Shown piece after piece: positions 273 to 39,202 of a stretch of DNA of 64,000 bases (the stretch's first letter is position 1; each line of letters starts with the position of its first letter). The DNA is from an uncultured Bacteroidota bacterium. Its GTDB lineage: Bacteria > Bacteroidota > Bacteroidia > Bacteroidales > 4484-276. A model generated the notes under the pieces. The model saw nothing but the letters and a program-made list of their open reading frames with translations. It ran no database searches and was not told the origin of the DNA. The stretch is from assembly GCA_903944895.1 (NCBI GenBank), contig CAJATL010000052.1, positions 973 through 64,972 of the forward strand. The letters run 5' to 3'. The position numbers were made by a program, and so were the translations under genes.

Positions 273-671
273 TCATAATTTCCCGGAGTTATGATGTTGT
301 GGAAAAACTTCCTGTTCTGACTTTTTTGCATCTTTACGCTGTTTCACAAAGAAAGCAACTGTGAGAATTATTCCAAGACTATACGCCAAAAAAACATATT
401 TTAAGTACCATGGCGCATATTCAAGGGTGATGGTTCCACTCATTCCAGCCGTCTTTACAGTTATTAATCCATCACGGCCGAAAACTTCGGCATCACCCTG
501 TTTTACTTTCCAGCCTGCCAGGAAATTTGAGTTTATCTGGAAAGTCGATGGGTTTGATAAATCGCAGCAAACGACTATTTCACCGGGAATGTAACTCATC
601 ATTCCGACATTTCCTGAGCCATCCAAAACATATACTTCACCTTTATAGCCAGGGTCATCCGTGCATTTCAC
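273..671 (-). pseudogene. Probable C-terminal fragment of a membrane-anchored (YfhO-like tail) protein
   Basis: GTG-start ORF ending in a single TM helix plus basic tail (YVFLAYSLGIILTVAFFVKQRK); the GW...G...ITLEY.P pattern resembles YfhO C-termini; a stop lies just upstream and the gcvP remnant abuts it. Confidence 0.4.
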
Positions 672-698
672 CGATGTGTTAAAGTAGAATTAGAAAAT

Positions 699-950
699 AT
701 GTTACTGATTTCTGGAATTGTCAAAACTCAAGCAGCCGATAAAAACAATGTCATCAAAAATATGCTGCATACCTTGTGCCAGCTTACTGCCGAAGAATGG
801 GACAAACCTTACAGCCGCGCGAAGGCTGCCTTCCCGCAGCCATGCAGCAAAGCTGATAAATACTGGCCTCCCGTTACCAAAATTGACGATGCCTTCGGCG
901 ACAGGAACCTGGTTTGCACCTGCCAGAGCTGGCAGCCTGACGCTGTTTAA
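699..950 (+). pseudogene. gcvP: Remnant of the 3' end of glycine dehydrogenase (P protein), copy 1
   Basis: NVIKN..HT....WDKPYSR.KAAFP....DKYWPPVTKIDDAFGDRNLVCTC matches the GcvP C-terminus; only ~75 aa of a ~950-aa protein. Confidence 0.85.
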
Positions 951-971
951 AGAATTATATAATCTGAAAAG

Positions 972-1005
972 AAGGCCTCATGAAAAGTAATCATGGGGCT
1001 TTTTT
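972..1005 (+). terminator. Intrinsic terminator after gcvP remnant 1
   Basis: aggcctcatga-aaagtaa-tcatggggct followed by a T run. Confidence 0.7.
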
Positions 1006-1090
1006 CATTTAGTGGGAATTTTCAGGAGAAATGACTAATTTCAGGTTGGAAGCTTACTGATATCTTGCATAATCAACAAATTCCCCAAAA

Positions 1091-1143
1091 CCATTCAGTG
1101 ATAAAAAACCATCCTTGGGTGAAAGAATCGTGCCATTGGGTGA
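1091..1143 (+). promoter_or_regulatory. Three phased direct repeats, likely LytTR binding sites
   Basis: ccattcagtga / ccttgggtga / ccattgggtga with GTGA at 1098, 1119 and 1140 (21-bp period), upstream of an operon encoding a LytTR regulator. Confidence 0.6.
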
Positions 1144-1203
1144 ATACATTTTTTGAAGATTAACTTGAGAGGTTCTTTTGTTTTCAAATTAAACTATCAA
1201 AGA

Positions 1204-3561
1204 ATGAATAAATTTTTTTTGCTTTTCCTGCTTTTCATAGCCCAAATCACTTTTGCCCAAAACAACAGGCAAAATATCAGAGGTGTTGTTACTGATAAGC
1301 TTTCCCAAACTACCCTTCCCGGCGCCACGGTTCAAATCTTCAATAAAAACATCATTAAAGGAACAGCAACCGATGAAAAAGGAAATTATGTGCTTTCTGA
1401 GGTTTCGCCCGACAGGTATGAAATAAAAGTTTCATTTATCGGCTACAAAGATGTGCTTGTTCCCAACGTGGTAGTCACTTCCGGAAAAGAAACAATTCTG
1501 GATATCGGAATGGAAGAAGATTTTAAACTGCTGAATGAAGTAGTGATAACTGCCAACAGCAAAGCCGGAACCATCAATAATTTAGCTCCGGTAAGCGCAC
1601 GCACCTTTTCGATGGAAGAAGTCAACCGTTATGCAGGAGGGCGAAGCGACCCGGCACGCCTTGCTGCAAATTTCGCAGGAGTAAGTGCTCCCGACGATTC
1701 CAGGAATGATATCGTAATCCGTGGTAATTCGCCAGTTGGCGTATTGTGGCGTATTGATGGAATGAATGTTACAAACCCTAACCATTTTGCAACTGTGGGA
1801 ACTACCGGCGGTGCAGTAAGCGCATTAAACACCAATTTGCTGAAAAGTTCCGATTTTCTCACTTCGGCTTTCCCTGCCGAATATGGCAATGCTACAGCCG
1901 GAGTTTTCGACCTGGGTTTCAGGAACGGGAATACGCAAAAACGGGAAACCACCTTGCAGGCAGGCCTGATTACCGGTCTGGAAGCTACTACCGAAGGGCC
2001 AATCAGTAAGACAAATGGTTCATCTTATCTTGTAGGTTACCGTTATGCACTGGCTGGTGTTGCCCAGGCTGCAGGTATTGATATCGGCACCACAGCTTTA
2101 CCTTCGTACCAGGATTTGTCGTTTAATGTGAACAGCGGCAATACAAAAGCAGGCGGGTTTACTTTGTTTGGCATTCTGGCAACAAGCAGCATCAATATCG
2201 AAGGGGGAAACTCAGGTTCCTTGTATGGAGGTGAAGGAGGTGGACATGATTTGAGCAGTCAGATTGGCATTATCGGGTTGAAGCATTTCAAACAGATTAA
2301 CAGAAAATCTTATTTTAGCTCTAATATAGGATTAAACTATTCAAATTCAGGGCAAACGGATTATGACGTTGACCGGATGAGCGATTCTGCGTACACAAAA
2401 TCAGAAACTAAGGTTACCAAAACAGGCTATAATTTTGCTACAAGTTATAATTCAAAAATAAGTTCAAGACTGTTTATAAAAGTGGGTATTCAGGATGAAC
2501 TGATTGGGTTGAACCTTTATTACCAGACAAAAGATCAAATCCAGTCGGATTGGAAGCAGATTTGGGATTATGATAGTTACACCAACCTGGCACAGGCTTA
2601 CGCTCATGCCAAATATAGTTTTAACGAGAAACTTACCCTCAATGCAGGTGTACATTCCCAACTGTTTTTCCTGAATAATTCTCTATCTGTTGAACCTCGG
2701 TTGGGGCTGAAATATGAAATTGATAACAAAAGCAGCCTTTCGCTGGGCTATGGGCTTCATTCGCAAATGCAACCCATAAATGTTTACTTTTTACAAACAC
2801 AGCTTGCTGATGGTTCTTACGTTTATAACAATGAAAACCTTGATTTTACTAAAAGTCATCATTTCGTTTTAGGGTACGATTTACAACCTTTTGAAAATTG
2901 GCGCTTAAAAGCCGAAGTTTATTACCAAAATCTTTACAATGTGCCGGTAAATACTTTTTTGAGCAGCTACTCCATGCTGAATACAGGTGCTGGTTTTATG
3001 ACCGATCTGGAAGACAGCCTGGTAAATAACGGAACCGGAAGAAATTATGGATTGGAACTGACAATCGAGAAATTTTTCAGCCATGGATATTATGGGTTGT
3101 TTACGTCGTCCATTTACAGTTCCAAATACATAGGAAGCGATGGAGTGGAACGGAACACGGCATTTAACGGGAAGTATGTTTTCAACATTCTGGGAGGAAA
3201 AGAATGGAACGTGGGAAGTGAAAAACGAAATAAAATCTCAGCCGATATTAAATGTACCAACGCCGGTGGAAGGGCTTACACACCCATTGATCTGGAAGCT
3301 TCCAACGCAACTGGCCACGAACAATTATCTTCGGACGCCTATTCGGCTTTTTATCCCAATTACTTTCGTTTAGATTTCAAGGTTGGATATACTTTAAACA
3401 GCCGGACGAAAAAACTTTCGCAGTCATTTTCCATTGACCTCCAAAACATCACGAACAACGATAACGTTTTCTCCGAAAGCTATGACGAGAAAAGCCAGTC
3501 AATAAGTACAACCTACCAGCTTGGGTTTTTCCCTAATTTTATTTATAAAATTCAGTTTTAG
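1204..3561 (+). CDS. TonB-dependent receptor with N-terminal CarboxypepD_reg-like domain (ORF track starts at 1153; ATG 1204 more likely)
   Basis: Signal peptide MNKFFLLFLLFIAQITFA|Q, plug motifs (NDIVIRGNSP, FPAEYGNA..GVFD), C-terminal Phe (YKIQF). Confidence 0.9.
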   Translation: MNKFFLLFLLFIAQITFAQNNRQNIRGVVTDKLSQTTLPGATVQIFNKNIIKGTATDEKGNYVLSEVSPDRYEIKVSFIGYKDVLVPNVVVTSGKETILDIGMEEDFKLLNEVVITANSKAGTINNLAPVSARTFSMEEVNRYAGGRSDPARLAANFAGVSAPDDSRNDIVIRGNSPVGVLWRIDGMNVTNPNHFATVGTTGGAVSALNTNLLKSSDFLTSAFPAEYGNATAGVFDLGFRNGNTQKRETTLQAGLITGLEATTEGPISKTNGSSYLVGYRYALAGVAQAAGIDIGTTALPSYQDLSFNVNSGNTKAGGFTLFGILATSSINIEGGNSGSLYGGEGGGHDLSSQIGIIGLKHFKQINRKSYFSSNIGLNYSNSGQTDYDVDRMSDSAYTKSETKVTKTGYNFATSYNSKISSRLFIKVGIQDELIGLNLYYQTKDQIQSDWKQIWDYDSYTNLAQAYAHAKYSFNEKLTLNAGVHSQLFFLNNSLSVEPRLGLKYEIDNKSSLSLGYGLHSQMQPINVYFLQTQLADGSYVYNNENLDFTKSHHFVLGYDLQPFENWRLKAEVYYQNLYNVPVNTFLSSYSMLNTGAGFMTDLEDSLVNNGTGRNYGLELTIEKFFSHGYYGLFTSSIYSSKYIGSDGVERNTAFNGKYVFNILGGKEWNVGSEKRNKISADIKCTNAGGRAYTPIDLEASNATGHEQLSSDAYSAFYPNYFRLDFKVGYTLNSRTKKLSQSFSIDLQNITNNDNVFSESYDEKSQSISTTYQLGFFPNFIYKIQF

Positions 3562-3586
3562 GTTGCTATGTTTATAATTTTGCCTT

Positions 3587-4657
3587 ATGAAATCACTTTC
3601 GTTAGATAATCGGAAAATAGAGGTTTTGCTTTACGTTGTGGTGTGGGCGCTGGTTTTTTCGGTGCCTTACTTTGGCGAACGCAGTTCCGGGCACATCAAC
3701 TGGCATGAAGTGACGAAAAACTGGATGCATATTCTTGGTTATCTCGCCATTTTTCTCATCAATGTTTATGTTTTTGTGCCGCGCCTGCTCTTAAAAAAGC
3801 GCTATTGGTCGTACTTTGCTTTGGTATCGCTTTTTATTTTCGTTGTGATTTTTCTCAATATTTTCAACGCGCCACCACAAGGCGATTCCGGTGGGGATTT
3901 TCCCTCAATCGAAAAAAGAGAAAAGGACAGGCCTTCATTTTCGGGAAAACCTCCTTTAATGGCTTTTGCTGATAATCTCATTATTTGCATTCTGATTATT
4001 GGCGCGGGTACAACCTTTAAACTGATGGCGAAATGGCTGAACGAGGAAAAATTGAGAAAAGATATCGAGAAGGAACATCTCAAAACCAACCTGGCATTGC
4101 TTCGGCATCAGGTAAGCCCGCATTTTTTTATGAATACGCTCAACAACATCCATTCGCTCATTGAGATAGATACCGAAAAGGCTCAGGATGCGATTGTCCG
4201 GCTTTCGACGCTGATGCGGTATTTGCTGTATGATGCAGCCCAAAACACCATTGAACTGAAGAAAGAAATCGAATTCATACGCAGTTTTATTTCGTTGATG
4301 CAACTCCGTCATTCGGATGAAGTTGTTGTTACCACGGTTATTCCCGATCAAATTCCGGACCTCAGAATCCCGCCGATGCTTTTTATTTCGTTGCTCGAAA
4401 ATGCCTTTAAACATGGTGTGAGCTATCCTTTGGAATCGTATATTCATTTTGAACTCCGGTTTGAGAAAACAGCGCTCCTCTGCATCATCAGAAACAGCAA
4501 ACATAAAATTGCAGCCGGCTACCAGGGCGAATATTCGGGCATAGGCCTCGATAACATTAAGGAAAGCCTGAAGTTATTGTATGAAAACGATTTTACGCTG
4601 GATATCCGTGATAAAGAAAATGAATTTGAAGTAAACCTAAAAATTCCGCTTGTATGA
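3587..4657 (+). CDS. LytS/YehU-type sensor histidine kinase
   Basis: N-terminal TM helices, LRHQVSPHFFMNTLNNI H-box, LLENAFKHG N-box, GIGLDN G-box. Confidence 0.92.
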   Translation: MKSLSLDNRKIEVLLYVVVWALVFSVPYFGERSSGHINWHEVTKNWMHILGYLAIFLINVYVFVPRLLLKKRYWSYFALVSLFIFVVIFLNIFNAPPQGDSGGDFPSIEKREKDRPSFSGKPPLMAFADNLIICILIIGAGTTFKLMAKWLNEEKLRKDIEKEHLKTNLALLRHQVSPHFFMNTLNNIHSLIEIDTEKAQDAIVRLSTLMRYLLYDAAQNTIELKKEIEFIRSFISLMQLRHSDEVVVTTVIPDQIPDLRIPPMLFISLLENAFKHGVSYPLESYIHFELRFEKTALLCIIRNSKHKIAAGYQGEYSGIGLDNIKESLKLLYENDFTLDIRDKENEFEVNLKIPLV

Positions 4658-5370
4658 TAAAATGTGTTGCCATTGATGATGAGCCGCTGGCGGTAAAAAA
4701 GATTGCAGGTTATATTGGCAAAATTCCTTTCCTGGAGCTGGTGGCTGAATGTCGGAGCGCTTCTGAGGCGATGAGTGTGCTCAGCGAAAACGATGTTCAA
4801 CTCCTGTTTATTGATATTAATATGCCTGATATTAGTGGGATGGATTTTGTAAAATCGTTGGCAAACAAGCCATACATCGTTTTTACAACCGCTTATAGCG
4901 AATATGCTGTGGAGGGTTTCCAGGTTGAAGCCGTTGATTATTTGTTAAAGCCCATCAGTTTCAGCAATTTCCTGAAGGCCGCAAACAAAGTTAAGAATCT
5001 TATTGATTTATCTTCAACTAGCCAAAAGGAAAGCCTCAGGGCAACAGCAAATCATTTGTTCGTAAAATCGGAATATAAACTTATCCGCATCGAACTCGAC
5101 GACATCAAATACATCGAGAGCCAGCACGAATACATCAAAATTCATTTGATTAACAGTAATCCGGTGATGACACAGGTCAGCCTGAAAAGCATCGGAGAAC
5201 AACTTCCATCCGACCGGTTTATGCAGGTTCATCGTTCGTTTATCGTCAATCTTGCCAGGGTTTCGGTTGTCGAACGCAACCGGATTGTATTCGACAACAA
5301 AATTTACATCCCGATCAGCGAGCAATACAAAGAAAAATTCCAGGAATATATTGATAAGAATTTTGTTTGA
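4654..5370 (+). CDS. LytTR-family response regulator
   Basis: REC domain (IDDEPLA, DINMP, DYLLKP) plus LytTR domain (FMQVHRSFIVN); 4-nt overlap with the kinase. Confidence 0.93.
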   Translation: MIKCVAIDDEPLAVKKIAGYIGKIPFLELVAECRSASEAMSVLSENDVQLLFIDINMPDISGMDFVKSLANKPYIVFTTAYSEYAVEGFQVEAVDYLLKPISFSNFLKAANKVKNLIDLSSTSQKESLRATANHLFVKSEYKLIRIELDDIKYIESQHEYIKIHLINSNPVMTQVSLKSIGEQLPSDRFMQVHRSFIVNLARVSVVERNRIVFDNKIYIPISEQYKEKFQEYIDKNFV

Positions 5371-5432
5371 AGTCATCCCAAGGTTATTCCTGCTTTTGAT
5401 GTTCATTAACGATTCGGAATTTTTCAGATAAC

Positions 5433-5511
5433 TAACAAAATTGATGATGCCTTTGGCGACAGAAACCTGGTTTGTATCAGCCAGAGTTGTCAGACCGAAA
5501 GCCTGGAATAA
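5433..5511 (+). pseudogene. gcvP: gcvP 3'-end remnant, copy 2
   Basis: aaaattgatgatgcctttggcgacagaaacctggtttgt encodes KIDDAFGDRNLVC, same as copy 1, then a different tail (ISQSCQTESLE*). Confidence 0.8.
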
Positions 5512-5520
5512 AAAGATTAA

Positions 5521-5561
5521 AAAAAAGAGGCTGTCTCAAAATCGGGACAGCCTCTTTTTTT
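5521..5561. terminator. Bidirectional intrinsic terminator
   Basis: aaaaaagaggctgtc...gacagcctctttttt between convergent genes. Confidence 0.85.
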
Positions 5562-5575
5562 AGAGTAATATTGCT

Positions 5576-7084
5576 TTAGTATATTTTGGAATCGTCGCGA
5601 AAGCCTGGTTCGTTTGAATACCAATTCGGATATAAAATACCAGAACTTTCAGCCCACTCGATAAAATGCAGGTAGGCCTCGTTTACCAATGCTTTTTCGA
5701 TTGGGTAATCAAATCCTTGTAAAATGTTTATTCCCCAGGGCAAATTATTTGATGTTTTATAATATCTTCCTGCTCCCGGATTGGAATCATCGCTGCCGGT
5801 TCCAAAAAGAGCGTCATTAGCCAGGCTTGTTGGGGCTTTGTCGGCCAGGTGTATTTCTCTTCCACGCTCCTGATTTGATATTATATAAAAATTAAATGAA
5901 GAAGAAGGCAATTGGTTGATGGTCACCGTTCCTCCGGGTGCAGGGTTTCCATCACTGATAAAAACCAAATTCACATCGAGTGTATCATAAGGAACTGTTG
6001 GAGCTGATTTGTCAGTATTTATTCCGGTTCCTGACCCAGGATGAGGCATCACATTAAAAAAATTGTCGAAAACTATACAGTTTGCAAATTGCTGGTTCGA
6101 CTCAAGTCCGTTGGATTCAAAACCAAATATCGGGGAAACTCCAGTTGAATTACCTGAAGTACTGATTATTTTATCCGGTGTGATATCGTCAAGCTGGAAG
6201 GCGAAAGCATTCTGAAAACTTGCTCCTGAAGCCCTCAAAACAAACTTTCCTAATATCTCAACAACATTATTTTGCGCATTGGTTATGGTATTCAACCTGT
6301 AATTTACTACAATATCATTAAAATCATAATCCGCCTTGTTTGGCCAGTTATCTTCAAAAGCAAGTGTACCATACTGGCTTACACCAGGATAGTAATTGTT
6401 GTAAGCCCGGTAAGGATCATTTGGGTAATTATCTTCACTATCGGCAACACCATCATTATCGGCATCCTGAAAAAATGCCAGCGGAGTACAAGCCGGAGGT
6501 GATGCCCAGTAAGTTCCCGGAAAAATAAAATTATCTGAATATGCTCTTTGATTTCCACCGGTACCAATATAACTTACCCAGATTTTGTAGGGTGTTGTCG
6601 AATTTTGAATTTCGACAGGTATTGGTGCTGAAATATCCCTGATGGTTGTAACATTAAATGCCGGGAAATTGTAAGTGTAAAACTGAACTGCAGTACCTTC
6701 GCCATACGAAGCACCTGCATCATACGGAATGTAGGAAAGAATTATTCCTTTTGCAGAAACTCCATTTCCATTTCCATCGAGACGCGTTTGAAAAGTAATA
6801 TTTCCGTTTCCGACCAACAACCATGGTGTTTTTATCCAGCAAGCTGAAAGTGAAAGATTTGTTAACGAATTACTTCTGGTGGAATACGAACCTGTAATTA
6901 CTAACGATGGATATGAAGCAATACTGGCATAACCTGTTGCCCCAAAACCCCAGCAATTTCCTACTTCGATCTCTTTGATTCCTGATTCACAGTCGAGTGT
7001 AACCTGAGCCTTTATGTTTGTACCTGCCATCATTAAAAATGATATTACTAAAGGCAGGATAAGTGATTTTTTAAAATTTTTCAT
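5576..7084 (-). CDS. LruC/DUF4842-domain secreted protein
   Basis: Signal peptide; DADNDGVAD..DNYPNDP Ca-binding-like repeat; GTLAFEDNWP..ADYDFND.V, EIHL, LPWGI, AY.HF.EWAES.G motifs of LruC domains. Confidence 0.85.
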   Translation of the reverse strand: MKNFKKSLILPLVISFLMMAGTNIKAQVTLDCESGIKEIEVGNCWGFGATGYASIASYPSLVITGSYSTRSNSLTNLSLSACWIKTPWLLVGNGNITFQTRLDGNGNGVSAKGIILSYIPYDAGASYGEGTAVQFYTYNFPAFNVTTIRDISAPIPVEIQNSTTPYKIWVSYIGTGGNQRAYSDNFIFPGTYWASPPACTPLAFFQDADNDGVADSEDNYPNDPYRAYNNYYPGVSQYGTLAFEDNWPNKADYDFNDIVVNYRLNTITNAQNNVVEILGKFVLRASGASFQNAFAFQLDDITPDKIISTSGNSTGVSPIFGFESNGLESNQQFANCIVFDNFFNVMPHPGSGTGINTDKSAPTVPYDTLDVNLVFISDGNPAPGGTVTINQLPSSSFNFYIISNQERGREIHLADKAPTSLANDALFGTGSDDSNPGAGRYYKTSNNLPWGINILQGFDYPIEKALVNEAYLHFIEWAESSGILYPNWYSNEPGFRDDSKIY

Positions 7085-7110
7085 TTTTCCTGGTGGTTAT
7101 TGATGATAAA

Positions 7111-7503
7111 TTATTCCTGAATTTGTGGGATAAAAGAAAAAGTTACCTGATTATTAACTATCGCTACCTGGTATTCCGCGGTTCCATATTTGAGAAGAAG
7201 TTGCGTTTCAGTTTTTGGAATGATAACTTCGATTGTTGCATCAAGATCCATTGCATGAAAACGCTGATGCAAAACTGTACCATCTATTAAACTGATGGAT
7301 AGTGTAGATTTAATCGGAATGGTGGTTGGAAGACCTTGAATAGAAATAATTACGTTCTGGCCGGTACTCCAGTTAAAAGTTGAAGGCACCTGAATGTTCT
7401 CCAAATTATCATTATCAGGATAAACAGGGTCGGTGAGGTCCTTTTTACAAGATGCAAAAAAAATCATCAGCGATAAAAGGAAGAATAAATTATATTTTTT
7501 CAT
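7111..7503 (-). CDS. Small lipoprotein upstream of the LruC-domain gene
   Basis: Lipobox FFASC-KK; VPSTFNWST motif like the N-terminus of LruC-type lipoproteins. Confidence 0.75.
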   Translation of the reverse strand: MKKYNLFFLLSLMIFFASCKKDLTDPVYPDNDNLENIQVPSTFNWSTGQNVIISIQGLPTTIPIKSTLSISLIDGTVLHQRFHAMDLDATIEVIIPKTETQLLLKYGTAEYQVAIVNNQVTFSFIPQIQE

Positions 7504-7526
7504 ATTTTTAATTTTGTAGATATTTT

Positions 7527-7542
7527 ACGAAAATCATGCCAA
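7527..7542 (-). promoter_or_regulatory. Possible sigma-54 (-24/-12) promoter
   Basis: Minus strand TTGGCATGATTTTCGT ~25 nt before the ATG; -24 box good, -12 box imperfect. Confidence 0.35.
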
Positions 7543-7895
7543 GGAATTATTAGTGTCGTATTTCATTCAATATCAGATACCTAAGAAATGCTTACAGTTA
7601 CAGGTTCATGCATTATTGGGAAATAATGCTCCAGATTGGTAAATATTTCGAAAAATTGAATTCCATTTCGATGAGAAGATAAATCGACATGAAAATCGGA
7701 ACTTAAGTGTTAATGGACGTCTTTATTTTCTGAGCCGTAAAGAATACCCAGGTTTGCCTTATTGATATGAACTTCAAAGTGTTCAAGCCAAACCGAAGGA
7801 CCTTGTGTAAATGAATTTGGAATAAATAGTTGGATAAAAGTCAATAGAAGAAATTTCTTTCGAATGGTCTTGTAATAAATGACGATTCAACAAAT

Positions 7896-8084
7896 CTCGC
7901 CAAAGCTGCCTTCACGCAACTACAGCAAAGCTGATAAATACAGACATACCGTTACCAAAATTGACGATGCCTTTGGCAACAGGAATCCGGTTTGCACTTG
8001 TCAGAGCTGGCAGCCTGACGCTGTTTAAAGAATTGAACAATCTGAAATGAAGGCCTCATGAAAAGTATTCGTGGGGCCTTTTTT
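7896..8084 (+). pseudogene. gcvP: gcvP 3'-end remnant, copy 3, with the same 3' UTR and terminator as copy 1
   Basis: Near-identical to ~816-1005 (gctgccttc...gctgataaatac...gttaccaaaattgacgatgcc...cagagctggcagcctgacgctgtttaaagaatt...aaggcctcatgaaaagta); carries a 1-nt deletion and substitutions. Confidence 0.88.
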
Positions 8085-8209
8085 GTAGTTGGAATTTTGC
8101 GAAAACAAAAAAGAGCTTATTCTAAAAAGGTGTTTTTTGTTTTTATCAAACCGTAACTCATTGAATTGAAGCCGATGAGGTTTTTTGTTTCTGTTAGGTT
8201 TCTGACAAA

Positions 8210-8332
8210 TCCAATCTTCCATTATTCCAATCTTCCACCATTCCATTTTTCACCCGCCGAAGCGGGATTTCTGCTAACGCCTCAACATTCCCCCCGATAG
8301 CTATCTGGGTTCCAATCCTCCAATCTTCCACC
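8210..8332. repeat. 8-nt periodic TTCCAATC-like repeat with embedded palindromes
   Basis: ccaatcttccattattccaatcttccaccattcc; cccgccgaagcggg; cccgatagctatctggg. Confidence 0.7.
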
Positions 8333-10741
8333 CTAAAAAATCTTCGGATACTTAAATGGATTCACGCTGTGCATCAGGTTGTAAACAGTATCAAAAACAT
8401 CTTCGGCATTTGGGTTTGAAAAATAATCACCATCGGTCGAATAAGCCGGACGGTGCGCCTGGGCTGTGATCGTTTTTGGTTCAGCATCCAGATAAAAGAA
8501 TCCTTTTTGTTCTTCCAGAACCTGCTGCATCATAAAAGAGGTGGCGCCTCCCGGAACATCCTCATCAAAAAACACAATCTTGTTTGTCTTCTTGAGCGAT
8601 TCCAGAATGATGTGGTTAATATCAAAAGGCAGTAAGGATTGAACGTCGATTAATTCGATATCAATACCAAAATCGGACAACTGTTTTGCGGCATCGGCGG
8701 CAATATGAACGCATGAACCGTAAGTTACAAGCGTGAGGTCGGTGCCGGTTTTTAAGACTTCCGGAACACCGATTGGAATCCGGAATTCGCCGATATTTGA
8801 AGGCCGTGGCTCCCGAAGCCTGTAGCCGTTTAATGGTTCAATGATCAAAGCAGGGTCGTCGGAGGCAAGGATCGTGTTATAAAAACCTGCCGCCTGTGTT
8901 AAGTTACGTGGGACCAACACATGAACGCCGCGAACCGAATTTATCACCATACTCAGCGGCGAGCCGGAATGCCAGATTCCTTCGAGGCGATGGCCGCGGG
9001 TACAAACGATGAGCGGGGCTTTCTGTCCGCCTTTGGTACGATAGGTTAAGGTGGCAAGATCATCGCTCATTACCTGCAAAGCGTAAAGCAGGTAATCGAA
9101 ATACTGGACCTCGGCGATGGGCCGCAGGCCGCGCATGGCCAGACCAAGACCCTGGCCAACGATGGTGGCTTCGCGGATTCCGGTATCAAAAATCCGGATT
9201 TCGCCATATTTTTCCTGCAAACCTTCGTACGTCTGATTTACACCGCCAATCTTTCCAACGTCTTCACCAAAAGCAATTACACGGCTGTTATGTTCGAAAA
9301 TATAGTCAAAATTATCTCTCAGAATTTCGCGCCCGGGGACCGATTTGGTGTTGCTGTCAAATTTTGGAGGAACCGGAACGACCTTGAGTGCCGAAAACTG
9401 ATCTTCGCAATGAAGATGCGAACTGAAGCGTTCGCGGCTATCTTCCATATCTTTATCAAACCATTTGGTAACATTGGTTTTGAGCGAATTTTCGGGATTG
9501 CTGCACGAATTACAAATGAGCCGCAAAATCCGTTTTGCCTGCGACATGGTGTCTTTCCGGATGGGTTCGGCAACTTTGGCGAGATCTTCTTTGATGGCTC
9601 CAATCCTGTCGGTTTTTGAACAGTTGCAGGTGCTGATATCTACTATTTTCAGGAAATCGTCGCGTTTTTTCCGGAGCGGAAGCGTAAAATTATCCCAGGC
9701 TTTTTTACGCGCATCCTTGGCGCGTTTTGCGGATGAACTTTCGATCGAATCTAATTCTTCGGCTGATGCAATTCCGGCAGAAATAATCCATTCACGCATT
9801 TTCCTGATGCCGTCGAATTCTTCTTCCCACCTGAGCCTTTCAGCAGTTTTATAACGTTCGTGCGAGCCGGAAGTTGAATGTCCCTGCGGTTGCGTGACTT
9901 CGGTAACATGAAACAAAACCGGAATATGCTGCTCCCGGCAGATTTTAACGCCTTCGGCATAAACACGGCATAATTCGGGATAATCCCAACCTTTGACTTT
10001 ATAAATCAGGAAGCCGGGTTTTTCATCCGTTCTTTCAAAGCCGCTTAAGGCTTCCGAAATGCTGCTTTTGATAGTTTGGAAATCTCTCGAAACCGAAATC
10101 CCAAAACCATCGTCCCAAACCGACATGGCCATCGGAACCTGCAAAACACCGGCAGAATTCATGGTTTCCCAGAAAACACCTTCAGACGTACTCGAATCGC
10201 CGATGGTTCCAAAAGCAACTTCATTGCCGTTTACCGAAAACTGATCGGATGTTTTTAATGCAGGATTATTACGATAAAATTTTGAGGCAAAAGCCAGACC
10301 AAGCAAGCGTGGCATTTGTCCTGCTGTTGGAGAAACATCGGCCGAACTGTTTTTAATTTTTGATTGCGACATCCAGGTCCCGTCCCTGTTGATGTATCGC
10401 GTGGCAAAGTGATTGTTCATCAGCCTTCCGGCAGTTCCCGGATTAAAATCTTCATCGGTATCGCCGTAAAGCTGGGCAAAAAATTCTTCCAAAGTCATTA
10501 TCCCGGCTGCCAGCATAAAAGTCTGGTCGCGGTAATAGCCCGAACGCCAGTCGCCATGTCTGAAAACCTTGGCCATGGCCAGTTGCGGTATTTCTTTGCC
10601 ATCGCCAAAAATTCCGAATTTTGCTTTGCCGGTGAGCACTTCTTTGCGCCCCAGAATACTGGCCTGGCGGCTCTCGCAGGCAATACGGTAATCATCGAGA
10701 ACCTCGGTTTTATAATTTTCGGCAGCTTTATTATTCGACAT
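8333..10741 (-). CDS. Fused alpha/beta E1 component of a 2-oxoacid (branched-chain-type) dehydrogenase
   Basis: TPP motif GDSSTSEG..WETMN, GHSTSGSHERY, GEDVG..GGV, IREATIVG, transketolase-C domain. Confidence 0.93.
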   Translation of the reverse strand: MSNNKAAENYKTEVLDDYRIACESRQASILGRKEVLTGKAKFGIFGDGKEIPQLAMAKVFRHGDWRSGYYRDQTFMLAAGIMTLEEFFAQLYGDTDEDFNPGTAGRLMNNHFATRYINRDGTWMSQSKIKNSSADVSPTAGQMPRLLGLAFASKFYRNNPALKTSDQFSVNGNEVAFGTIGDSSTSEGVFWETMNSAGVLQVPMAMSVWDDGFGISVSRDFQTIKSSISEALSGFERTDEKPGFLIYKVKGWDYPELCRVYAEGVKICREQHIPVLFHVTEVTQPQGHSTSGSHERYKTAERLRWEEEFDGIRKMREWIISAGIASAEELDSIESSSAKRAKDARKKAWDNFTLPLRKKRDDFLKIVDISTCNCSKTDRIGAIKEDLAKVAEPIRKDTMSQAKRILRLICNSCSNPENSLKTNVTKWFDKDMEDSRERFSSHLHCEDQFSALKVVPVPPKFDSNTKSVPGREILRDNFDYIFEHNSRVIAFGEDVGKIGGVNQTYEGLQEKYGEIRIFDTGIREATIVGQGLGLAMRGLRPIAEVQYFDYLLYALQVMSDDLATLTYRTKGGQKAPLIVCTRGHRLEGIWHSGSPLSMVINSVRGVHVLVPRNLTQAAGFYNTILASDDPALIIEPLNGYRLREPRPSNIGEFRIPIGVPEVLKTGTDLTLVTYGSCVHIAADAAKQLSDFGIDIELIDVQSLLPFDINHIILESLKKTNKIVFFDEDVPGGATSFMMQQVLEEQKGFFYLDAEPKTITAQAHRPAYSTDGDYFSNPNAEDVFDTVYNLMHSVNPFKYPKIF

Positions 10742-10891
10742 GATTATTTGTTTTTATGAATGTTGAGTGTGGTCAAAAAACACTTTTGCGCTATTTAAAA
10801 AAAACCGACATCCGTCAAATGGCGGACTGATATGTTTTTGAGACCAAACTATTTGTTAGCAAGCAAAAGTAATAAAATAGAAACCGGAAAT

Positions 10892-10922
10892 AAAAATCCC
10901 GCTTTGTCGAAGCGGGATTTTT
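10892..10922. terminator. Intrinsic terminator (padR-pspC operon)
   Basis: aaaaatcccgctt-tgtcg-aagcgggattttt. Confidence 0.8.
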
Positions 10923-11004
10923 ACATTTAAATACTTGAAAATTAAAAAATTATTAGTCGTTTGGGCTTGTTAAATTATCTTAATGGCCCATAAAATCAGG
11001 AAGA

Positions 11005-13422: not shown

Positions 13423-13669
13423 CAAAGCTGTCAGGTTAAGTCCAGAATTCAGATTTTCCATAGCCCAAACCTTCAGGTTTGGGGTTTTAGGAATCTCCAA
13501 TACAACAAAGCCAAGGCGTTTACGCCTTTTTGCCCTTCATGCGATCCTTTTCAGATGAAGGTCGTAAACGACCTGATGTTTTTGGTTACTCAACTCCTAA
13601 CCCGGTGCTGAAGCACCGGGCTATGGAAACTTTTCCATGGCAAACGTCAAAATCATATCTTAAACTGAC
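13423..13669. mobile_element. MITE-like non-coding element, copy A
   Basis: Ends caaagctgtcaggttaag ... cttaaactgac; internal hairpins; homologous in inverse orientation to 50384-50670. Confidence 0.7.
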
Positions 13670-13815
13670 CTCATAAATCATAATTTGAATGAATTCTCCC
13701 AACCAAATTTCAACTGATCCACCAACAGGTTGACGAAATCCGGCAAAGTGAAATTACAACTCCTGGTTTTTTAAAAATCATACCTTCGCTATCATTTTCA
13801 ATATTGGAGATTAGC

Positions 13816-14931
13816 ATGAAAGCAAGATATTTTTTCGTTTGCCTGATATTGCAACTTTTTACTGCCGGTAGCCAGGCCCAGGATAACAAAACCTGGCCAT
13901 CGTTTCGGGGCAATCGAGCACTTACGGGAACCACCGAAGTTACGCTTCCCAATTCGATGAAGTTGTTGTGGTTGTTCCAGGCTGGTGATGCCATCAAATC
14001 ATCGCCAGTGATCAGCGATCAAAAAGTTTACATCGGTTGCGATGATGGACTGGTTTATTGTATTTCAAATGAAGGCGAGTTCCTCTGGAAATCCGGCACC
14101 GAAAGCTCTATCGAAGCGCCGCTGTTATTTCTCGACAACACCATTTTTGCCGGTAACCTCGAAGGAAAATTGCTCGCTTTTGAAGCCGGAAACGGGAAAA
14201 AGAAATGGGAATATCTCACCGACGGCCAGATTTCGGGGGCTTCAAACTGGGCATTTTCGGCTGATCGTAAAACGAAATACATCCTGACCGGCAGTTACGA
14301 TTATTTTCTCCACTGCGTGGATGCATCAACCGGAAAACTCATCTGGAAATACGAATCGAACAATTATGTCAACGGGTCAGCGGCCATCAATGACAAAACC
14401 GCCATCTTTGGCGGTTGCGATGGCTATCTTCACCTGGTGGATATTTTTAAAGGTGATACCATTTCAAAAATCAATATCGGAACTTACATTGCATCTTCGG
14501 TAGCGCTCGATGGCGGAAAAGCATATTTTGGCAACTATGATGGTGAGTTTTTTTGTGTTAATCTTTCGACCAAAGAAATTCTGTGGAAACACGAAAATGC
14601 CGGAGTTTTTGTGGCTTCGCCCTCTGTTTCGGCAGATGCTGTTGTGATTGGCTCACAGAATAAAAATTGCTATTGTTTTGATAAGAAGAATGGGAAATTA
14701 AGATGGACATTCAAGACCCTCGGTAAAATTAATGGTTCGCCTGTAATAGCCGGTAACCGCGTAATTTTTGGCTCAGTTGATGGCCGGGTTTATGTTTTGG
14801 ATTTGAAAACCGGTGAAAAAGTGTGGTCGTACGAAATTGGCAGCCCGATAAGCGGAACCCCGGCAGTAACAAAAGGATTAATTGTGATTGGCGCTGAGGA
14901 TGGTTCGGTTCATGCTTTTGGAGAAAAGTAG
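13816..14931 (+). CDS. PQQ-like beta-propeller repeat protein (BamB-like fold)
   Basis: Signal peptide, WPSFRGN motif, repeated SSP...GSxDGx.Y.LD..TG..xW blades. Confidence 0.88.
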   Translation: MKARYFFVCLILQLFTAGSQAQDNKTWPSFRGNRALTGTTEVTLPNSMKLLWLFQAGDAIKSSPVISDQKVYIGCDDGLVYCISNEGEFLWKSGTESSIEAPLLFLDNTIFAGNLEGKLLAFEAGNGKKKWEYLTDGQISGASNWAFSADRKTKYILTGSYDYFLHCVDASTGKLIWKYESNNYVNGSAAINDKTAIFGGCDGYLHLVDIFKGDTISKINIGTYIASSVALDGGKAYFGNYDGEFFCVNLSTKEILWKHENAGVFVASPSVSADAVVIGSQNKNCYCFDKKNGKLRWTFKTLGKINGSPVIAGNRVIFGSVDGRVYVLDLKTGEKVWSYEIGSPISGTPAVTKGLIVIGAEDGSVHAFGEK

Positions 14932-20092: not shown

Positions 20093-20473
20093 ATGAACAT
20101 TGTAATTATCGAGCAAAACAAAATATTTCGCGAAAGCCTGAAAACTGCTTTAAGCCAGGTGAGTGATTTTAAGGTGGTTTTTGATGCCGATAACAGCGTT
20201 TTCCCCGAAAATATCAGCCATGTTCAGGTAAACCTGCTTCTGATTGATTACGGCCTCGGCGAAGCTACGTGTAACGAAACCATTACCAAAGCCCTTTCGA
20301 TATGGCCTGCTGTGCGGTTTTTGTTTCTGACAAATTACAAAGAGGAGTTCACTTTTAATAGTATGAAAACCACCGGTGCCATTCTAAAAAACTCTTCTAA
20401 AAAGGAATTTGAAGATAAAATAAGGGAGCAACAATCAAAATTAAATTGGCAAAACGATATGATAATAATTTAA
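20093..20473 (+). CDS. Stand-alone, divergent receiver (REC) domain protein
   Basis: MNIVIIEQNKIFRESL...LLLIDY...FLFLT...ILKN mirrors the NarL REC domain; acidic pocket degenerate. Confidence 0.7.
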   Translation: MNIVIIEQNKIFRESLKTALSQVSDFKVVFDADNSVFPENISHVQVNLLLIDYGLGEATCNETITKALSIWPAVRFLFLTNYKEEFTFNSMKTTGAILKNSSKKEFEDKIREQQSKLNWQNDMIII

Positions 20474-20683
20474 AAATCATGATGCAATTAAGTAAAAACT
20501 TCGTAACAATTCCTGACAGCACGCACTTTACCAGTTGCAGTAAACCAATAAAATATCTCAACGATAGACACATCAGCAGTCCTTTTGTGGCATGAGCAGC
20601 CCAAAAAACAGCCTTCGCAGCCTCGTTAGTAAAATTTGTTTAAGGCATTGCCTGAAAAATATTAACACATAAAAAATTTAAGT

Positions 20684-23600
20684 ATGAAAGTCAAATACAG
20701 CGTTTCGCTTTTCTTAGTCATAATTCTATCTCTGTCCGGCACTTTTGAGGCATATTCCCAAAACCTGACCGACACAGTTAACATCCCTCAAATAACCATC
20801 GAATCGCTTAACGGCTTTGGGCCTTACACCATCGGCACTTCGCGCGATAATTATTTTATGGCTTACGACTTGCCGACAAATACATCAAGTGTCACTTTCA
20901 GGATGATTGACGAAAATGGCGACCAGATAAACAGTTCCTCAACCACCGGGGGCGACAACCTGGAGTCGGCTTTCTGGGAATTTGAATCCGACACAATGAA
21001 TTTTCCGCTATCGCCGCAGTTAAACGTCGAAGTGCATTATCAAACCGACAGTGTGGCCAATTATTACATTCCATACATTGTTTACTGCGACACTGTATTT
21101 TTTGAAGCTACCAAAGGCTGGGGGCCTTTTATTACGAACAATTACACACGGACCGATACTTCGTGGCATAACGTTGCCCAAATGCCAAATACTTTTAGTG
21201 TAAGAAACCTGCCACCGAGAACCGAAAAGGTAAAATTTACCATTTTTTCGGCAGATTCGGTTGCGATTGATTCATCTTTTACCATGGCGCCAACCGGCCA
21301 ATATCTCGATTCGGCAAAATTTCTTGAAGTCAGGATGGATTTGCTGCCACTAAAAACCAGGTTTATCGAGGCAGCTTCGTTTTGCGCTGGCGGCCCTTCG
21401 GACGGCGTAATTCAAAATAAAGAGCTTATTATCCTTCCTCAAACGCCAAAATTAGTATGCAAAACCGACCTGAACATTTACCACGATTCGATCCCACAAT
21501 TTACACAAAACCAAACCGGTGGCCAGGCAATCCTGGTTGACACCAATAAATACGCTCAGATTCAGAATGGACCCGGTCTGATGCACGAAACCCTCTCGGG
21601 TACAAAATATGCCGGACCATATAGTTTTGATATTATCCAGGGACAATTTACCATTGAAGCCTGGGTACAATACAATGCCAAACTCTCCACACTTCCGCAG
21701 GGCGAAATGAATATAATGTCGGTTGATTCGCTCTGGAAAATTGGCCTGATAAAAGATGGATATGGAAATAACCTCTATTTTTATTCGCTGGCCGGTGGCA
21801 TAGAAAACACCCTGGTAATGGCCGGCTTACCTTCGATAACAAACAATAGCTGGCATCATATGGCCTACACCTTTAAATATATTCAGGATAAAGCGACATT
21901 TTCGGTTCATGTATTTTGGGATGGGAACCTAATCAATCCTTCCCAGGTTTCGGTGGATGTTGAGGAATTCGATTACATTTTTCAGCATATTCCGTATCGC
22001 GATAATATGAAAACCAAACCTCTGATACTTGGTAGTATTCAAAATGATGCGCCATCGGTTCGTATTATTCAGGCTATGGATGAAGTAAGAATCTGGAATT
22101 ATGCCCGAAGCGCCCAGGAAATTAAAAGCAATTTCAAAAAACCTGTTCTTCAGGATTTAAGTCTGACAGGCTATTGGAACTTTGACGACCTCCGGAATCG
22201 CCTGAAAATTGTATCCGACGACAGCTACACCAACAACACCGGGACAATCGAGAATGGCGCCTGCTTTATTCCCGAGGCTATAGATATTCAGGATTTAAAC
22301 GATACGATAATTTTTACATCAAGCAACAAACTCACCGATTCGATCAAATTTAGCTTTTACGATTTTAACAACAATGTGCTTTATTCAAAATTGCTGCATC
22401 CCTCAAGCAGTAAATGCACTTTAGCTTATGATTTATCAACACTTTCGTACAAAGTAAGCCATTTAAAAACGCGTGAGTATTTTCCCGGGGTTGCCGACAG
22501 CGGGTTTGTAACAACCTACAATGTTTCGGTAACGCCGCCAATCCCGATAGCCACGCCCAAATACAACTGGAGTGCTTTTTATCAGAGCGATTATGAATAC
22601 GACGAAATAATCAATTCGATTGATGTGGCGGGCTTACCTTCCGGTTCGTTCAAAATAGTTTGTGGCCTCAAAAGTGGCAATTCGTATTACGATACTCAAA
22701 CGTTTACCCAAAACAGCGTTCCTTACCAATACTCGCTTAACCTCAACGGCGCTGACAATTTTATACAGACGTCCCAAAAAATTTCCTGTCCCACCAGTGG
22801 CGAAATTTCCTTTTATTTCAACACTACTTCTAAAGATGGCGGGGTTTTATTATCATTTAGCCAAACAAAAAACGGTGTCGGCAGCACCCGTACAGAGCGG
22901 TTGTTCCTTTTGGAAAAAGATGGCTCTCTAAGATTTCAGGTCATGTCGGGATACGTTTTGTATGGCGAGCACGCTTACAACGACGGGCTATGGCACAATG
23001 TTACGGGGTCTTTTGGAGGCCTCTCAGCAGAGTTGTACATTGATGGCTCGTTGGTTGACCACAAAGCCATTCCCTATTTATCCGGCTACGATGGCTATTG
23101 GCTGGTTGGCAGGAATCACGCCAACAAATCTGAAGAAATACGGGCACTGGCCGAATATTATAAAGGCTCACTGGCCGAAATTTATTTTTGGCGCTCCGAC
23201 AAAAACCGGAGCGAAACATTGTACCGGCTTGATGACGGACAAGGTGTAACTGTTTTGGATTCGAAAGGGAGCAATCATGGAACTTTGAGCGGTAATTTGC
23301 AAAAATGGGTCAAGGTAAACCGAAACCTTTCGTACATCACCTGGAAAGGAAATATGATAAACAAACCTGCCGGTAATTACACTTTTTTTGTCGAGCTTTT
23401 TTATGAAGGCGGGCCGGCAAACGGGATTTATTATCCTGTTGGGAATTTTATTATCAAAGATCCTCTGCCTGGCTACACCTTTGACTATAATTTTAACCAG
23501 GGTATCGGTTATTTTAATGAAGGCGTTTTTCTTAATAATCTGATCAGTTTTAATACAGATTATACCCTGCAAGGAACAACAAATTGGAAGGAAGACTTCC

Positions 23601-38251: not shown

Positions 38252-39202
38252 ATGACAGTAACGCTACAAGTTTTTGAAACAGTTTTTGCCTTTACCATCG
38301 TGGTCATGTTTTGTTTGCTGCTGCGCAAATATTCAATTATCAAAGCCGAAGATGGGAAGATTTTTGCCAGATTGCTTACTCAGGCGGTATTGCCGGCGGT
38401 TATTTTTCTTCAGTTATCGGCAACTCCCATCAAAGCAGGGCAGTTTTTGCTGGTACTTTCCATTTTTGTGGCTGGAATTTTATCAATGATTGCAGCCTGG
38501 CTTGCAGGACGTGCGCTTAAATTATCCAAAGCAAAAACCGGTGCCTTGATGCTGACTTCATCGTTTGGAGCTTCGGCACTTCTGGGTTATCCGTTTATCG
38601 CCTTTTCATTTCCAAATAACCCCGAAGCCATTGCCGATGCTGTGCTTTTAAGCGAATTAGGAGTTGGCTTGCCATTGTTTATTCTGGGTCCGGCCATTGC
38701 CATTTATTTTGGTGAAAAACAGGAAAATGCGGATATGAAAAAAGCATTTTCTTTATCTTATTTCAGTTCTCCGATTTTCATTTCGGTTGTTTTAGGGATA
38801 GCGGTTTCGTTTATTCCCATCAATCGTGAAAACGGTTTTGTTGCTCCTTTTTTTGAAGCGCTGAAAATGATAAACGGGGCATTGTCAATGTTGGCGTGTC
38901 TCATTTTATCATTGCAATTAAAGCTAACATCCTTAAAAGGAATAGTCCCGCTTTTTATTATTTCGGCAATCATCCAGATGTGGTTTCAACCCATGGTAGC
39001 TCATGTCCAGGCTACTTTGTATCATTTATCAACCATACAAACGCAGGTTTTGGTTTTGGTAAGCTCGATGCCTTCGGCGGTACTCGGCCCCGTATTTGCC
39101 AGCCGTTACAACTGCGCCCCCGATACTGCTTCGGCATTGGTTATTGCGCATATTGTGCTGAGTATCGCCATGATACCTGCTGTTTTTTATATGATTGGAT
39201 AA
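38252..39202 (+). CDS. AEC (auxin efflux carrier)-family transporter
   Basis: About 10 TM helices; LPAVIF, LGYPF, SPIF, MPSA motifs. Confidence 0.85.
   Translation: MTVTLQVFETVFAFTIVVMFCLLLRKYSIIKAEDGKIFARLLTQAVLPAVIFLQLSATPIKAGQFLLVLSIFVAGILSMIAAWLAGRALKLSKAKTGALMLTSSFGASALLGYPFIAFSFPNNPEAIADAVLLSELGVGLPLFILGPAIAIYFGEKQENADMKKAFSLSYFSSPIFISVVLGIAVSFIPINRENGFVAPFFEALKMINGALSMLACLILSLQLKLTSLKGIVPLFIISAIIQMWFQPMVAHVQATLYHLSTIQTQVLVLVSSMPSAVLGPVFASRYNCAPDTASALVIAHIVLSIAMIPAVFYMIG

Follow-up and report, generated by a model that had tools for sequence, protein, structure and literature searches.

The locus studied here raises the question of how the 3' end of the housekeeping gene gcvP came to stand three times, in direct orientation, among other genes of one genome region, and whether a dedicated enzyme placed it there. 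The region lies in a 64,000-nt stretch of a lake Lentimicrobiaceae genome, hereafter called the window (positions 973-64972 of contig C52 in the source assembly G000). G000 is a metagenome bin of 424 contigs with an estimated completeness of 96% and an estimated contamination of 4.2%. A sequence-only reading of the window had proposed gcvP as a repeatedly used entry point for gene cassettes, stacked by an integron-like process. What is found is a real array of several gene-end scars in a plastic region, not shown to be integron-like. The explanation preferred here, held with moderate confidence, is that the copies are scars of homologous and illegitimate recombination at the gcvP end, with gene conversion, and not sites of a dedicated enzyme.

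In the following, C52, C396, C149, C141, C343, C484 and similar labels denote contigs, G001 and G002 are assemblies from the same genus, and L029 and L030 are metagenome contigs. Negative positions are nucleotides counted from the gcvP stop. Four parts of the repeat were named: P, the decayed 5' edge; T, the well-kept part; U, the spacer before the TonB-dependent receptor (TBDR) gene; and D, the ~150 nt after the terminator of the live gcvP gene.

Five ends of gcvP in one genome

The three copies of the gcvP 3' end lie in direct orientation at 702-1011, 5433-5511 and 7898-8083 of the window (terminators included for copies 1 and 3). A repeat finder returned a three-copy family of 66 nt (875-940, 5433-5498 at 83% and 7953-8018 at 91%) and a 161-nt pair (845-1005 and 7923-8083, 89%). 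In a BLAST search against the whole assembly, the alignment of copies 1 and 3 spanned 188 nt with 87% identity (E 3e-60) and that of copies 1 and 2 spanned 61 nt with 85% (E 2e-12), similarities far beyond chance. The same search brought the total for the genome to five gcvP ends, three in the window and two on C396: the end of the live gene (C396:14756-15027, 95% to copy 1) and a further remnant, called remnant A (C396:16991-17298, 89% to copy 1).

Copy 1 (702-950, forward strand, stop codon at 948-950) retains a frame of 83 amino acids (aa) ending in KIDDAFGDRNLVCTCQSWQPDAV* and matches the end of the 958-aa live gcvP at 95% over 273 nt. Its two parts differ in preservation: P (~702-737) agrees with the live gene at just 27 of 45 positions, T (738-950) is 95.7% identical over 186 nt. 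A terminator hairpin follows on the same strand at 971-1005 (fold of 951-1012: −20.3 kcal/mol, z −4.9), and with it the copy extends to ~1011. Copy 2 (5433-5511, forward strand) comprises the last ~75 nt of the gene. It has the type-2 tail, as does the live G002 gene, and is separated from the neighbouring LruC-like gene by the hairpin of a bidirectional terminator at 5520-5561 (−27.7 kcal/mol, z −8.6). Copy 3 (7898-8028, forward strand) holds the last ~130 nt with a type-1 tail and its stop codon at 8026-8028. It is decayed, with a 2-nt deletion causing a frameshift and several amino-acid changes, and is 87% identical over 188 nt to the live gene end; its terminator hairpin stands at 8049-8081 on the forward strand (z −5.4).

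Every tail is thus followed by a hairpin and a U-run, also at the two ends on C396 (z −5.3 and −2.9). A simple terminator scan on its own flagged only the terminator of copy 3. The tail QPDAV* and its terminator are common to copies 1 and 3; copy 2 ends in QTESLE* with a different terminator. Repeat finder, BLAST and folding therefore bear out the sequence-only reading in its three direct gcvP ends with terminators and in the 3' end shared by copies 1 and 3 as distinct from copy 2. Its three sites hold, with corrections: copy 1 runs with its terminator to ~1011, the stop codon of copy 3 is at 8026-8028, and two more copies exist on C396.

All copies have in common a core of ~60 nt encoding KIDDAFGDRNLVC. 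To the left of this core they end at three places: at ~−250 in remnant A, copy 1 and the remnants of L029 and L030, at ~−130 in copy 3 and at ~−75 in copy 2. The repeats span 75-330 nt. The three tail types leave the protein length the same, and a 10-residue tail after the conserved cysteine is also the commonest length in relatives, present at 5 of the 8 loci with the motif, G002 included.

Support for the assembly

Copies from different strains or a mis-joined metagenome assembly could produce such a picture, the more so as the bin is fragmented into 424 contigs with 4.2% estimated contamination and the start of C52 has no overlapping neighbour in it, C396 included. Against this, the copies differ by 5-17% and are therefore not collapsed or mis-joined identical repeats. 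A Logan contig of public run X2, an independent sample, covers 5315-8031 with zero differences and bridges the response regulator gene, copy 2, the LruC-like gene, the putative lipoprotein open reading frame (ORF) and copy 3. Further contigs of this sample reproduce 982-1716 and 3589-5344 without a difference, and sequencing depth is similar across contigs (42-56). Furthermore, L030 independently joins a type IX secretion system (T9SS) gene, a remnant and the TBDR gene. The bin was also considered as a mixture of two strains, and this was rejected for lack of long near-identical duplicates: C52, C396, C149 and C141 (~140 kb) have no second near-identical copy in the bin, barring repeats and one 631-nt match at 93%. 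We take the observation as confirmed and regard an artefact as very improbable.

The public runs were compared through their assembled contigs (Logan). Contigs drop rare variants, and thin coverage in those of runs X4, X7 and X9 is no proof of absence.

The live gene and the split array

An intact gcvP, which had been expected upstream of the window, is not there. The 972 nt that precede the window on C52 are the end of a DUF4397/T9SS-tail gene, and the live gcvP is located on C396 (12092-14968) as a 958-aa ORF with the domains GDC-P and GcvP2_C. It is followed there by its terminator, D, a gene for a 570-aa T9SS-tail protein, 58 nt and remnant A, and then by a terminator, a second D and a 511-aa ORF on the minus strand. 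The 570-aa gene is all that lies between the live end and remnant A; there is no prophage and no element with an integrase. At remnant A, the gcvP end and D are repeated over 421 nt with 91% identity to the live end plus D. Remnant A is a hybrid, with P of the remnant type and T plus D of the live-gene type, a structure that would be expected of an unequal crossover.

C396 and C149 share 141 nt, at the end of the former and the start of the latter. C149, to the right of remnant A, encodes PBP1, a class II tRNA synthetase, Pth, L25, phosphoribosyl pyrophosphate synthase, TilS, DsbD, TGT, LptF/G and TatC, and is core chromosome. The idea that the DNA to the right of remnant A is a large mobile element was dropped on this account. 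Since C396 runs on into C149 and not into C52, the window array is not physically behind gcvP in the assembly. An intact target gene heads the array on C396 (gcvP, T9SS gene, remnant A); the array in the window instead follows a truncated, unrelated gene, and has been separated from gcvP through rearrangement. Among the core genes of C149, an AbiEii-type toxin gene (20217-20843) and a SLATT/DUF4231 gene (38627-39079) were observed.

The truncated gene (273-671, reverse strand) encodes the C-terminal ~130 aa of the 511-aa family, whose function is unknown. As had been read from the sequence, it abuts copy 1: the 381 nt of window 302-682 align at 95.5% identity with C396:17447-17827, which encodes the C-terminal portion of the 511-aa ORF, and the protein has 91% aa identity to residues 368-496. 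An intact gene, collinear with the window fragment and its flank, is present on G001:C343. The homology to the 511-aa gene stops at 682, and a contig of run X9 matches 189-682 exactly and is unlike the window beyond. Homology to the L029 and L030 remnants, which follow the T9SS gene, begins near 700. Because both the gene homology and the X9 contig break at 682, copy 1 sits at a rearrangement junction (683-701).

L030 carries, contiguously, the T9SS-protein gene (82%), a remnant, spacer U and the start of the TBDR gene (86%). This suggests that the C396 part and the window part of the array were once joined, and L030 probably represents the older state. Compared with L030 and G001, the halves of two loci are exchanged in G000, each left half now standing before the right half that belongs to the other locus; ~330 nt of the remnant and 381 nt of the 511-aa gene occur at each of the two junctions. 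Inversion, duplication then deletion, and circle insertion were considered as routes to this arrangement. An inversion with staggered ends would fit the four junctions, but it accounts for the live-gene-type downstream sequence after remnant A only with an extra unequal crossover. The last ~18 codons of the 511-aa ORF on C396 (17394-17452) come from the duplicated D, and its C-terminus is therefore chimeric compared with the truncated copy in the window and with G001.

Blocks behind gcvP in related lineages

The live gcvP on G002:C484 has the tail type and terminator of copy 2, directly followed by an LruC-like gene (94% over 1590 nt), so copy 2 has the appearance of a live gcvP end of the sister species. 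In its simplest reading, window 5433-8100 would be a single moved fragment of a G002-type locus, containing a gcvP end, the LruC-like gene, a small ORF, an older remnant and the first bases of U, with copies 2 and 3 as passengers.

L029 has a live gcvP with a third tail, QQNEG*. Behind it stand a DUF488 gene and a 277-aa gene, then what is left of the T9SS-protein gene, its last 16 codons, and finally the start of a remnant. The block has displaced all but these 16 codons of the T9SS gene, an illegitimate joint on its right side. The two genes of this block (L029 179-1911) overlap and encode a 300-aa DUF488 protein, extended at its N-terminus, and a 277-aa protein of no family; they may form a small defence or toxin-antitoxin-like module.

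Three live gcvP genes, identical up to 15 nt before the stop, thus carry three tails and three gene blocks: the T9SS-protein gene in G000, the LruC-like gene in G002 and the DUF488 pair in L029. Remnants follow the blocks in G000, L029 and L030. This upholds the claim that gcvP was repeatedly used as an entry point. Of the outcomes that would have spoken against the sequence-only reading, the lack of an intact gcvP upstream was found; identical gene content in the relatives is not what G002 and L029 show, and an assembly artefact is contradicted by the identity of the X2 contig described above.

The interval from gcvP to the E1 dehydrogenase gene had been predicted to vary in content between relatives within the same boundaries. 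Its content does differ, and G001 has a third, different sequence after the E1 dehydrogenase gene. The shared boundary did not hold: on G002:C258 the TBDR/two-component block ends at the stop codon of the regulator. Beyond it come a GH106-like gene and the stop of the E1 dehydrogenase gene, and no gcvP fragment was found after the regulator stop. The TBDR block is therefore not a cassette bounded by the core. In family relatives where both searches gave a place, the E1 dehydrogenase gene and gcvP are on different contigs, and LruC-like and TBDR orthologues in other genera are not adjacent to gcvP.

Surveys for additional gcvP ends covered 41 relatives (DNA query), 23 family genomes and 401 genomes sampled from the order, and extra ends were found in G000 only. 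Among the 400 order genomes other than G000, three had a second match and none a comparable array. Doubles seen in other genomes had other causes: one gene split over contigs (G017 and G284), two full genes (G231) or a piece at a contig edge (G138). A scan for the gcvP/block pattern returned two contigs in metagenomes, only the G002 contig among genome contigs and no match among viral contigs. The block itself had no match in phage or plasmid collections.

Separate history of the gene end

In the live genes of the three lineages, the last ~260 nt differ 4-9 times less than the upstream gene. Between G000 and G002, 25 of 163 positions mismatch upstream of −276 and 8 of 261 from −275 to −15 (Fisher p 8e-6); between G002 and L029 the counts are 14 of 127 upstream and 3 of 261 in the block (p 2e-5). 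Identity at third positions climbs from 0.6-0.7 upstream to 0.85-1.0 in the block. Six control pairs within other genera of the family had no such rise, and the low-divergence block is therefore not a general constraint on gcvP. It indicates that the final ~260 nt of gcvP have had a history of their own. With the displaced ends downstream, the separate history of the live end (−275 to −15) is what replacement of a gene end would leave.

A stretch in the middle of gcvP (C396 ~13500-14100; ~−1472 to −873) also shows raised identity to L029, with third positions at 0.8-0.95, and gcvP appears to be mosaic beyond its end.

The remnants are composed of an old and a young part. Their P (first ~45 nt) agrees with live genes at 22-28 of 38-45 positions and with remnants of other species at 31-45 of 44-52 positions. 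Their T (186 nt) is 93-96% identical to live genes. The codons that differ in T are mostly synonymous, with synonymous to non-synonymous counts of 5:4 in remnant A, 5:2 in copy 1 and 11:1 in L030 (total 21:7), a bias that would fit a sequence evolved in, or copied from, a working gene. As P is old and T young, the remnants were either repeatedly overwritten from a working gene, or their T was recently part of one.

Conservation of T could also mean that the repeated end is kept for a function, as a portable terminator, a 3'-end RNA module or a small protein from the 83-aa frame, in which case selection and not recombination would explain it. T is indeed better conserved than its flanks in two species (93.5%, compared with 86% for the whole 486-nt match of L030 to C52 including P and U), copy 1 retains its 83-aa open frame with an ATG, and strong hairpins are kept in all copies. 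But copies 2 and 3 are decayed, the latter with its frameshift, the ORF of the remnant has no Pfam match, and Rfam gave none except two weak, sub-threshold matches to Thr_leader, one of them on the terminator of copy 2. No array of this kind occurs in the 400 other order genomes, three second matches notwithstanding. Moreover, the synonymous bias is that of the full-length enzyme gene and is explained by conversion with no need of a new function. We consider a retained function improbable.

Recombinases and the case for site-specific accretion

None of the 17 Phage_integrase matches of the assembly is on C52, C396 or C149, and no serine recombinase (Resolvase, Recombinase) was matched in the assembly, which is estimated 96% complete. 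No recombinase gene or remnant was found in the blocks examined (C52 and C396 of G000, L029, L030, G002:C484 and G002:C258), a small set on short contigs. The window is thus free of recombinases, as had been noted from its sequence; of the further remnants and the recombinase looked for outside it, remnant A turned up on C396, and a recombinase on none of C52, C396 and C149. A profile scan of the genome and a Pfam scan of the ORFs around both arrays gave no IntI-type tyrosine recombinase at the head of an array. A repeat search found no shared inverted-repeat site of the attC type, the gcvP end being the only repeated boundary element, and in an alignment of five boundaries nothing was conserved outside gcvP-derived sequence.

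Small integrase-less elements that carry a substitute gcvP end, stacked by a recombinase encoded elsewhere, would nevertheless account for part of the picture. Each unit opens with a gene-restoring tail, direct repeats of the target gene's 3' end flank the units, and the three lineages have three different blocks at one and the same point. Accretion in tandem, decayed elements included, is moreover an established process (PMC5704250). Further points favour this explanation or weigh against recombination without a dedicated enzyme. The three tail types part at one nucleotide, 15 nt before the gene end. Each of the three pairwise comparisons places the left edge of the low-divergence block at nearly the same spot, with the last dense mismatch at −276 to −282, and this edge lies within ~30 nt of the left edge of the remnants, so that block edges are fixed in three lineages both on the left and, at −15, on the right. 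Random crossovers would scatter such edges, and a fixed one is suggestive of a set site or of a mobile piece with set limits. The tails diverge exactly at the end of a perfect inverted repeat, CTGCCAG-AG-CTGGCAG (window 920-935, forward strand). The 17 tyrosine recombinase matches might act in trans, and 424 contigs leave gaps. The comparison set consists of two short metagenome contigs and two fragmented same-genus assemblies, and no circle, empty site or crossover was observed. The contig-level layout of the public runs listed no joint between copies, rare forms being dropped by contigs.

Several of these points have a counterpart. The inverted repeat is the only perfect one of at least 7 bases in 380 nt, but at least one arises in 11% of shuffles, and none of the 7 relatives' loci examined has it at the gcvP end; it is a post hoc lead only. 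Its 2-nt spacer would suit a serine recombinase, the type not found in the assembly. Accretion would moreover predict one common start point for the remnants, and they share the ~60-nt core but have three left edges (~−250, −130 and −75). No block examined holds a recombinase gene or remnant, the blocks carry ordinary chromosomal genes, and the block is without a copy in the phage, plasmid and viral-contig collections. The TBDR block of G002 lacks a gcvP-derived right end, and the L029 block replaced part of the T9SS gene, where a plain insertion would have left it whole. Conservative site-specific exchange alone also leaves the young T on an old P, common across species, unexplained. The integron-like, site-specific process of the sequence-only reading is not supported on these grounds, an intact gcvP upstream and a nearby recombinase being missing, the left edges differing, the G002 block having no gcvP end and copies 2 and 3 reading as parts of a single moved piece. 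Accretion by a recombinase acting from elsewhere is unlikely in our view, if still worth weighing. Homologous recombination through the conserved gene end, which the same reading had named as an option, fits best.

A proposed recombinational origin and its counterparts

Recombination at the gcvP end has to account for what was directly observed, namely several copies, relatives that differ, a block of low divergence, a synonymous bias and no recombinase nearby. The features expected of recombination scars are found in the variable outer edges, the hybrid remnant A, the old P on a young T and the synonymous bias. The crossover mechanism, the gene conversion and the order of events given here are our reconstruction. 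Segments headed by a gcvP end, with the tail, terminator and neighbour genes of another lineage, would have been added behind the live gene by recombination within its last ~260 nt. This would have been one crossover with a DNA circle or an unequal crossing-over, and would each time restore the gene and push a duplicate end downstream. The duplicates would then act as repeats, undergoing gene conversion with the live gene and serving as breakpoints for more duplication, replacement and rearrangement. Later the array would have been split, gcvP, the T9SS-protein gene and remnant A being kept on C396 and copy 1 with the TBDR/two-component block coming to stand behind the truncated gene on C52. 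The piece from copy 2 over the LruC-like gene to copy 3 would come from a gcvP locus of the G002 type and have been inserted between the genes for the response regulator and the E1 dehydrogenase.

We also entertain, as a tentative extension, that the ~260-nt gcvP end is a portable homology arm. General recombination would let the blocks it flanks loop out and return, both inside a species and from one species of the genus to another.

The array has partial counterparts in known systems. The element ICESt1 at fda is bounded by repeats of a few tens of bases. Of the prophage cases, e14 and phage 21 in icd of Escherichia coli supply a substitute 3' end with the inserted DNA and leave the old end as a pseudo-fragment; they carry their own integrase and represent a single insertion. 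In both icd and gcvP the last part of the live gene has a history apart from the rest, but the gcvP array comprises several small units and has neither a prophage nor an integrase. Behind rhs and cdiA, orphan C-terminal arrays arise when displaced 3' ends and their downstream genes pile up behind the live copy. These ends can recombine back through the conserved part without a dedicated recombinase, and encode swappable toxins and immunity genes that are selected as such. The gcvP array likewise consists of displaced gene 3' ends behind a live copy, each with downstream genes, but the end is that of a housekeeping enzyme and the cargo is unrelated to it. With integrons it shares small gene units stacked at a single entry point; unlike them it has no IntI, no attI and no folded sites of the attC type, and its units have their own regulators, terminators and mixed orientations.

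Tandem accretion with decayed, integrase-less elements at gene ends involves att repeats with one fixed core and a known integrase family (PMC5704250). Like such accretions and the cis-mobilizable elements (CIMEs), the gcvP array has a live gene followed by units bounded by direct gene-end repeats, the units are without integration genes of their own and their content varies between relatives. Unlike them, its repeats are 75-330 nt with three left edges, no unit holds an integrase and the genes are ordinary chromosomal ones. Homology-facilitated illegitimate recombination and transformation merodiploids are reported from experiments in competent bacteria and E. coli (PMC3240628 and PMC3784515). 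There too, one homologous anchor with an illegitimate joint, or pairing with a repeat, adds foreign DNA and can duplicate the anchor. A literature search found no report of gcvP ends as an entry point. The genomic island reported inside gcvP of Pseudomonas aeruginosa (PMC12607901) is an unrelated case.

Neighbouring genes

Between copy 1 and the TBDR gene lies spacer U (1006-1152, forward strand), which is common to L030 and of which the first ~20 nt are also present after copy 3. The TBDR gene (1153-3561, forward strand) has the Pfam domains CarboxypepD_reg, Plug and TonB_dep_Rec_b-barrel; an orthologue at 91% was found solely in G002 of the same genus, with at most 45% in other family genomes. 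It is followed on the same strand by a LytS-type histidine kinase gene (3587-4657, Pfam His_kinase) and a LytTR response regulator gene (4654-5370, Pfam Response_reg and LytTR), at whose stop codon the similarity with G002 ends. In G002 (C258 2348-3836) the regulator ORF is just 126 aa, the LytTR domain alone, and ~300 nt around the kinase/regulator junction do not align with G000, from which the two-component pair of G002 may be damaged.

The LruC-like gene (5576-7084, reverse strand) has a DUF4842 domain (Pfam, E 1.6e-52). The putative lipoprotein of the sequence-only reading is a small 130-aa ORF (7111-7503, reverse strand) with no Pfam family, and a contig of run X9, like that of X2, links it to copy 3. 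The gene for the fused E1 dehydrogenase (8333-10741, reverse strand; Pfam E1_dh, Transket_pyr and Transketolase_C) forms the right border of the variable interval. The part between the LytTR regulator and the E1 dehydrogenase genes (window 5369-8331; G002:C258 105-2349; G001:C403 1-564) is a second variable spot, with three fillings in three species of the genus and borders exactly at both stop codons. Run X4 has yet another sequence beyond the regulator stop.

A dispersed short repeat, unrelated to the gcvP copies, was found by BLAST at 8210-8330. It consists of units like TTCCAATCTTCCACC and a small GC hairpin, has ~100 BLAST matches in the assembly and many copies in G001 and G002, and reaches ~30-fold depth in the lake metagenome contigs of run X2. 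It looks like an element of the repetitive extragenic palindromic (REP) or miniature inverted-repeat transposable element (MITE) kind. The Thr_leader matches of Rfam at window 5500-5561 (33 bits) and 10888-10956 (29 bits), to be set against a gathering score of 55, are probably false positives, the first falling on the terminator hairpin of copy 2.

Significance

For annotation, the 83-aa, 49-aa and shorter 'genes' at these sites should be labelled as gcvP fragments. The end of a housekeeping gene has served as an entry point several times in this uncultured lineage of freshwater Lentimicrobiaceae, and its duplicated ends are a readable record of how accessory genes enter the chromosome. If the portable-arm reading is true, the locus would gather and shuffle genes like an integron without a dedicated recombinase, and the traffic would keep the arm near-identical across species while the rest of gcvP diverges. 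If no integrase is involved, a small gene stack would be built up and reordered by ordinary recombination alone, and surveys based on integrases may underestimate how common such stacks are.

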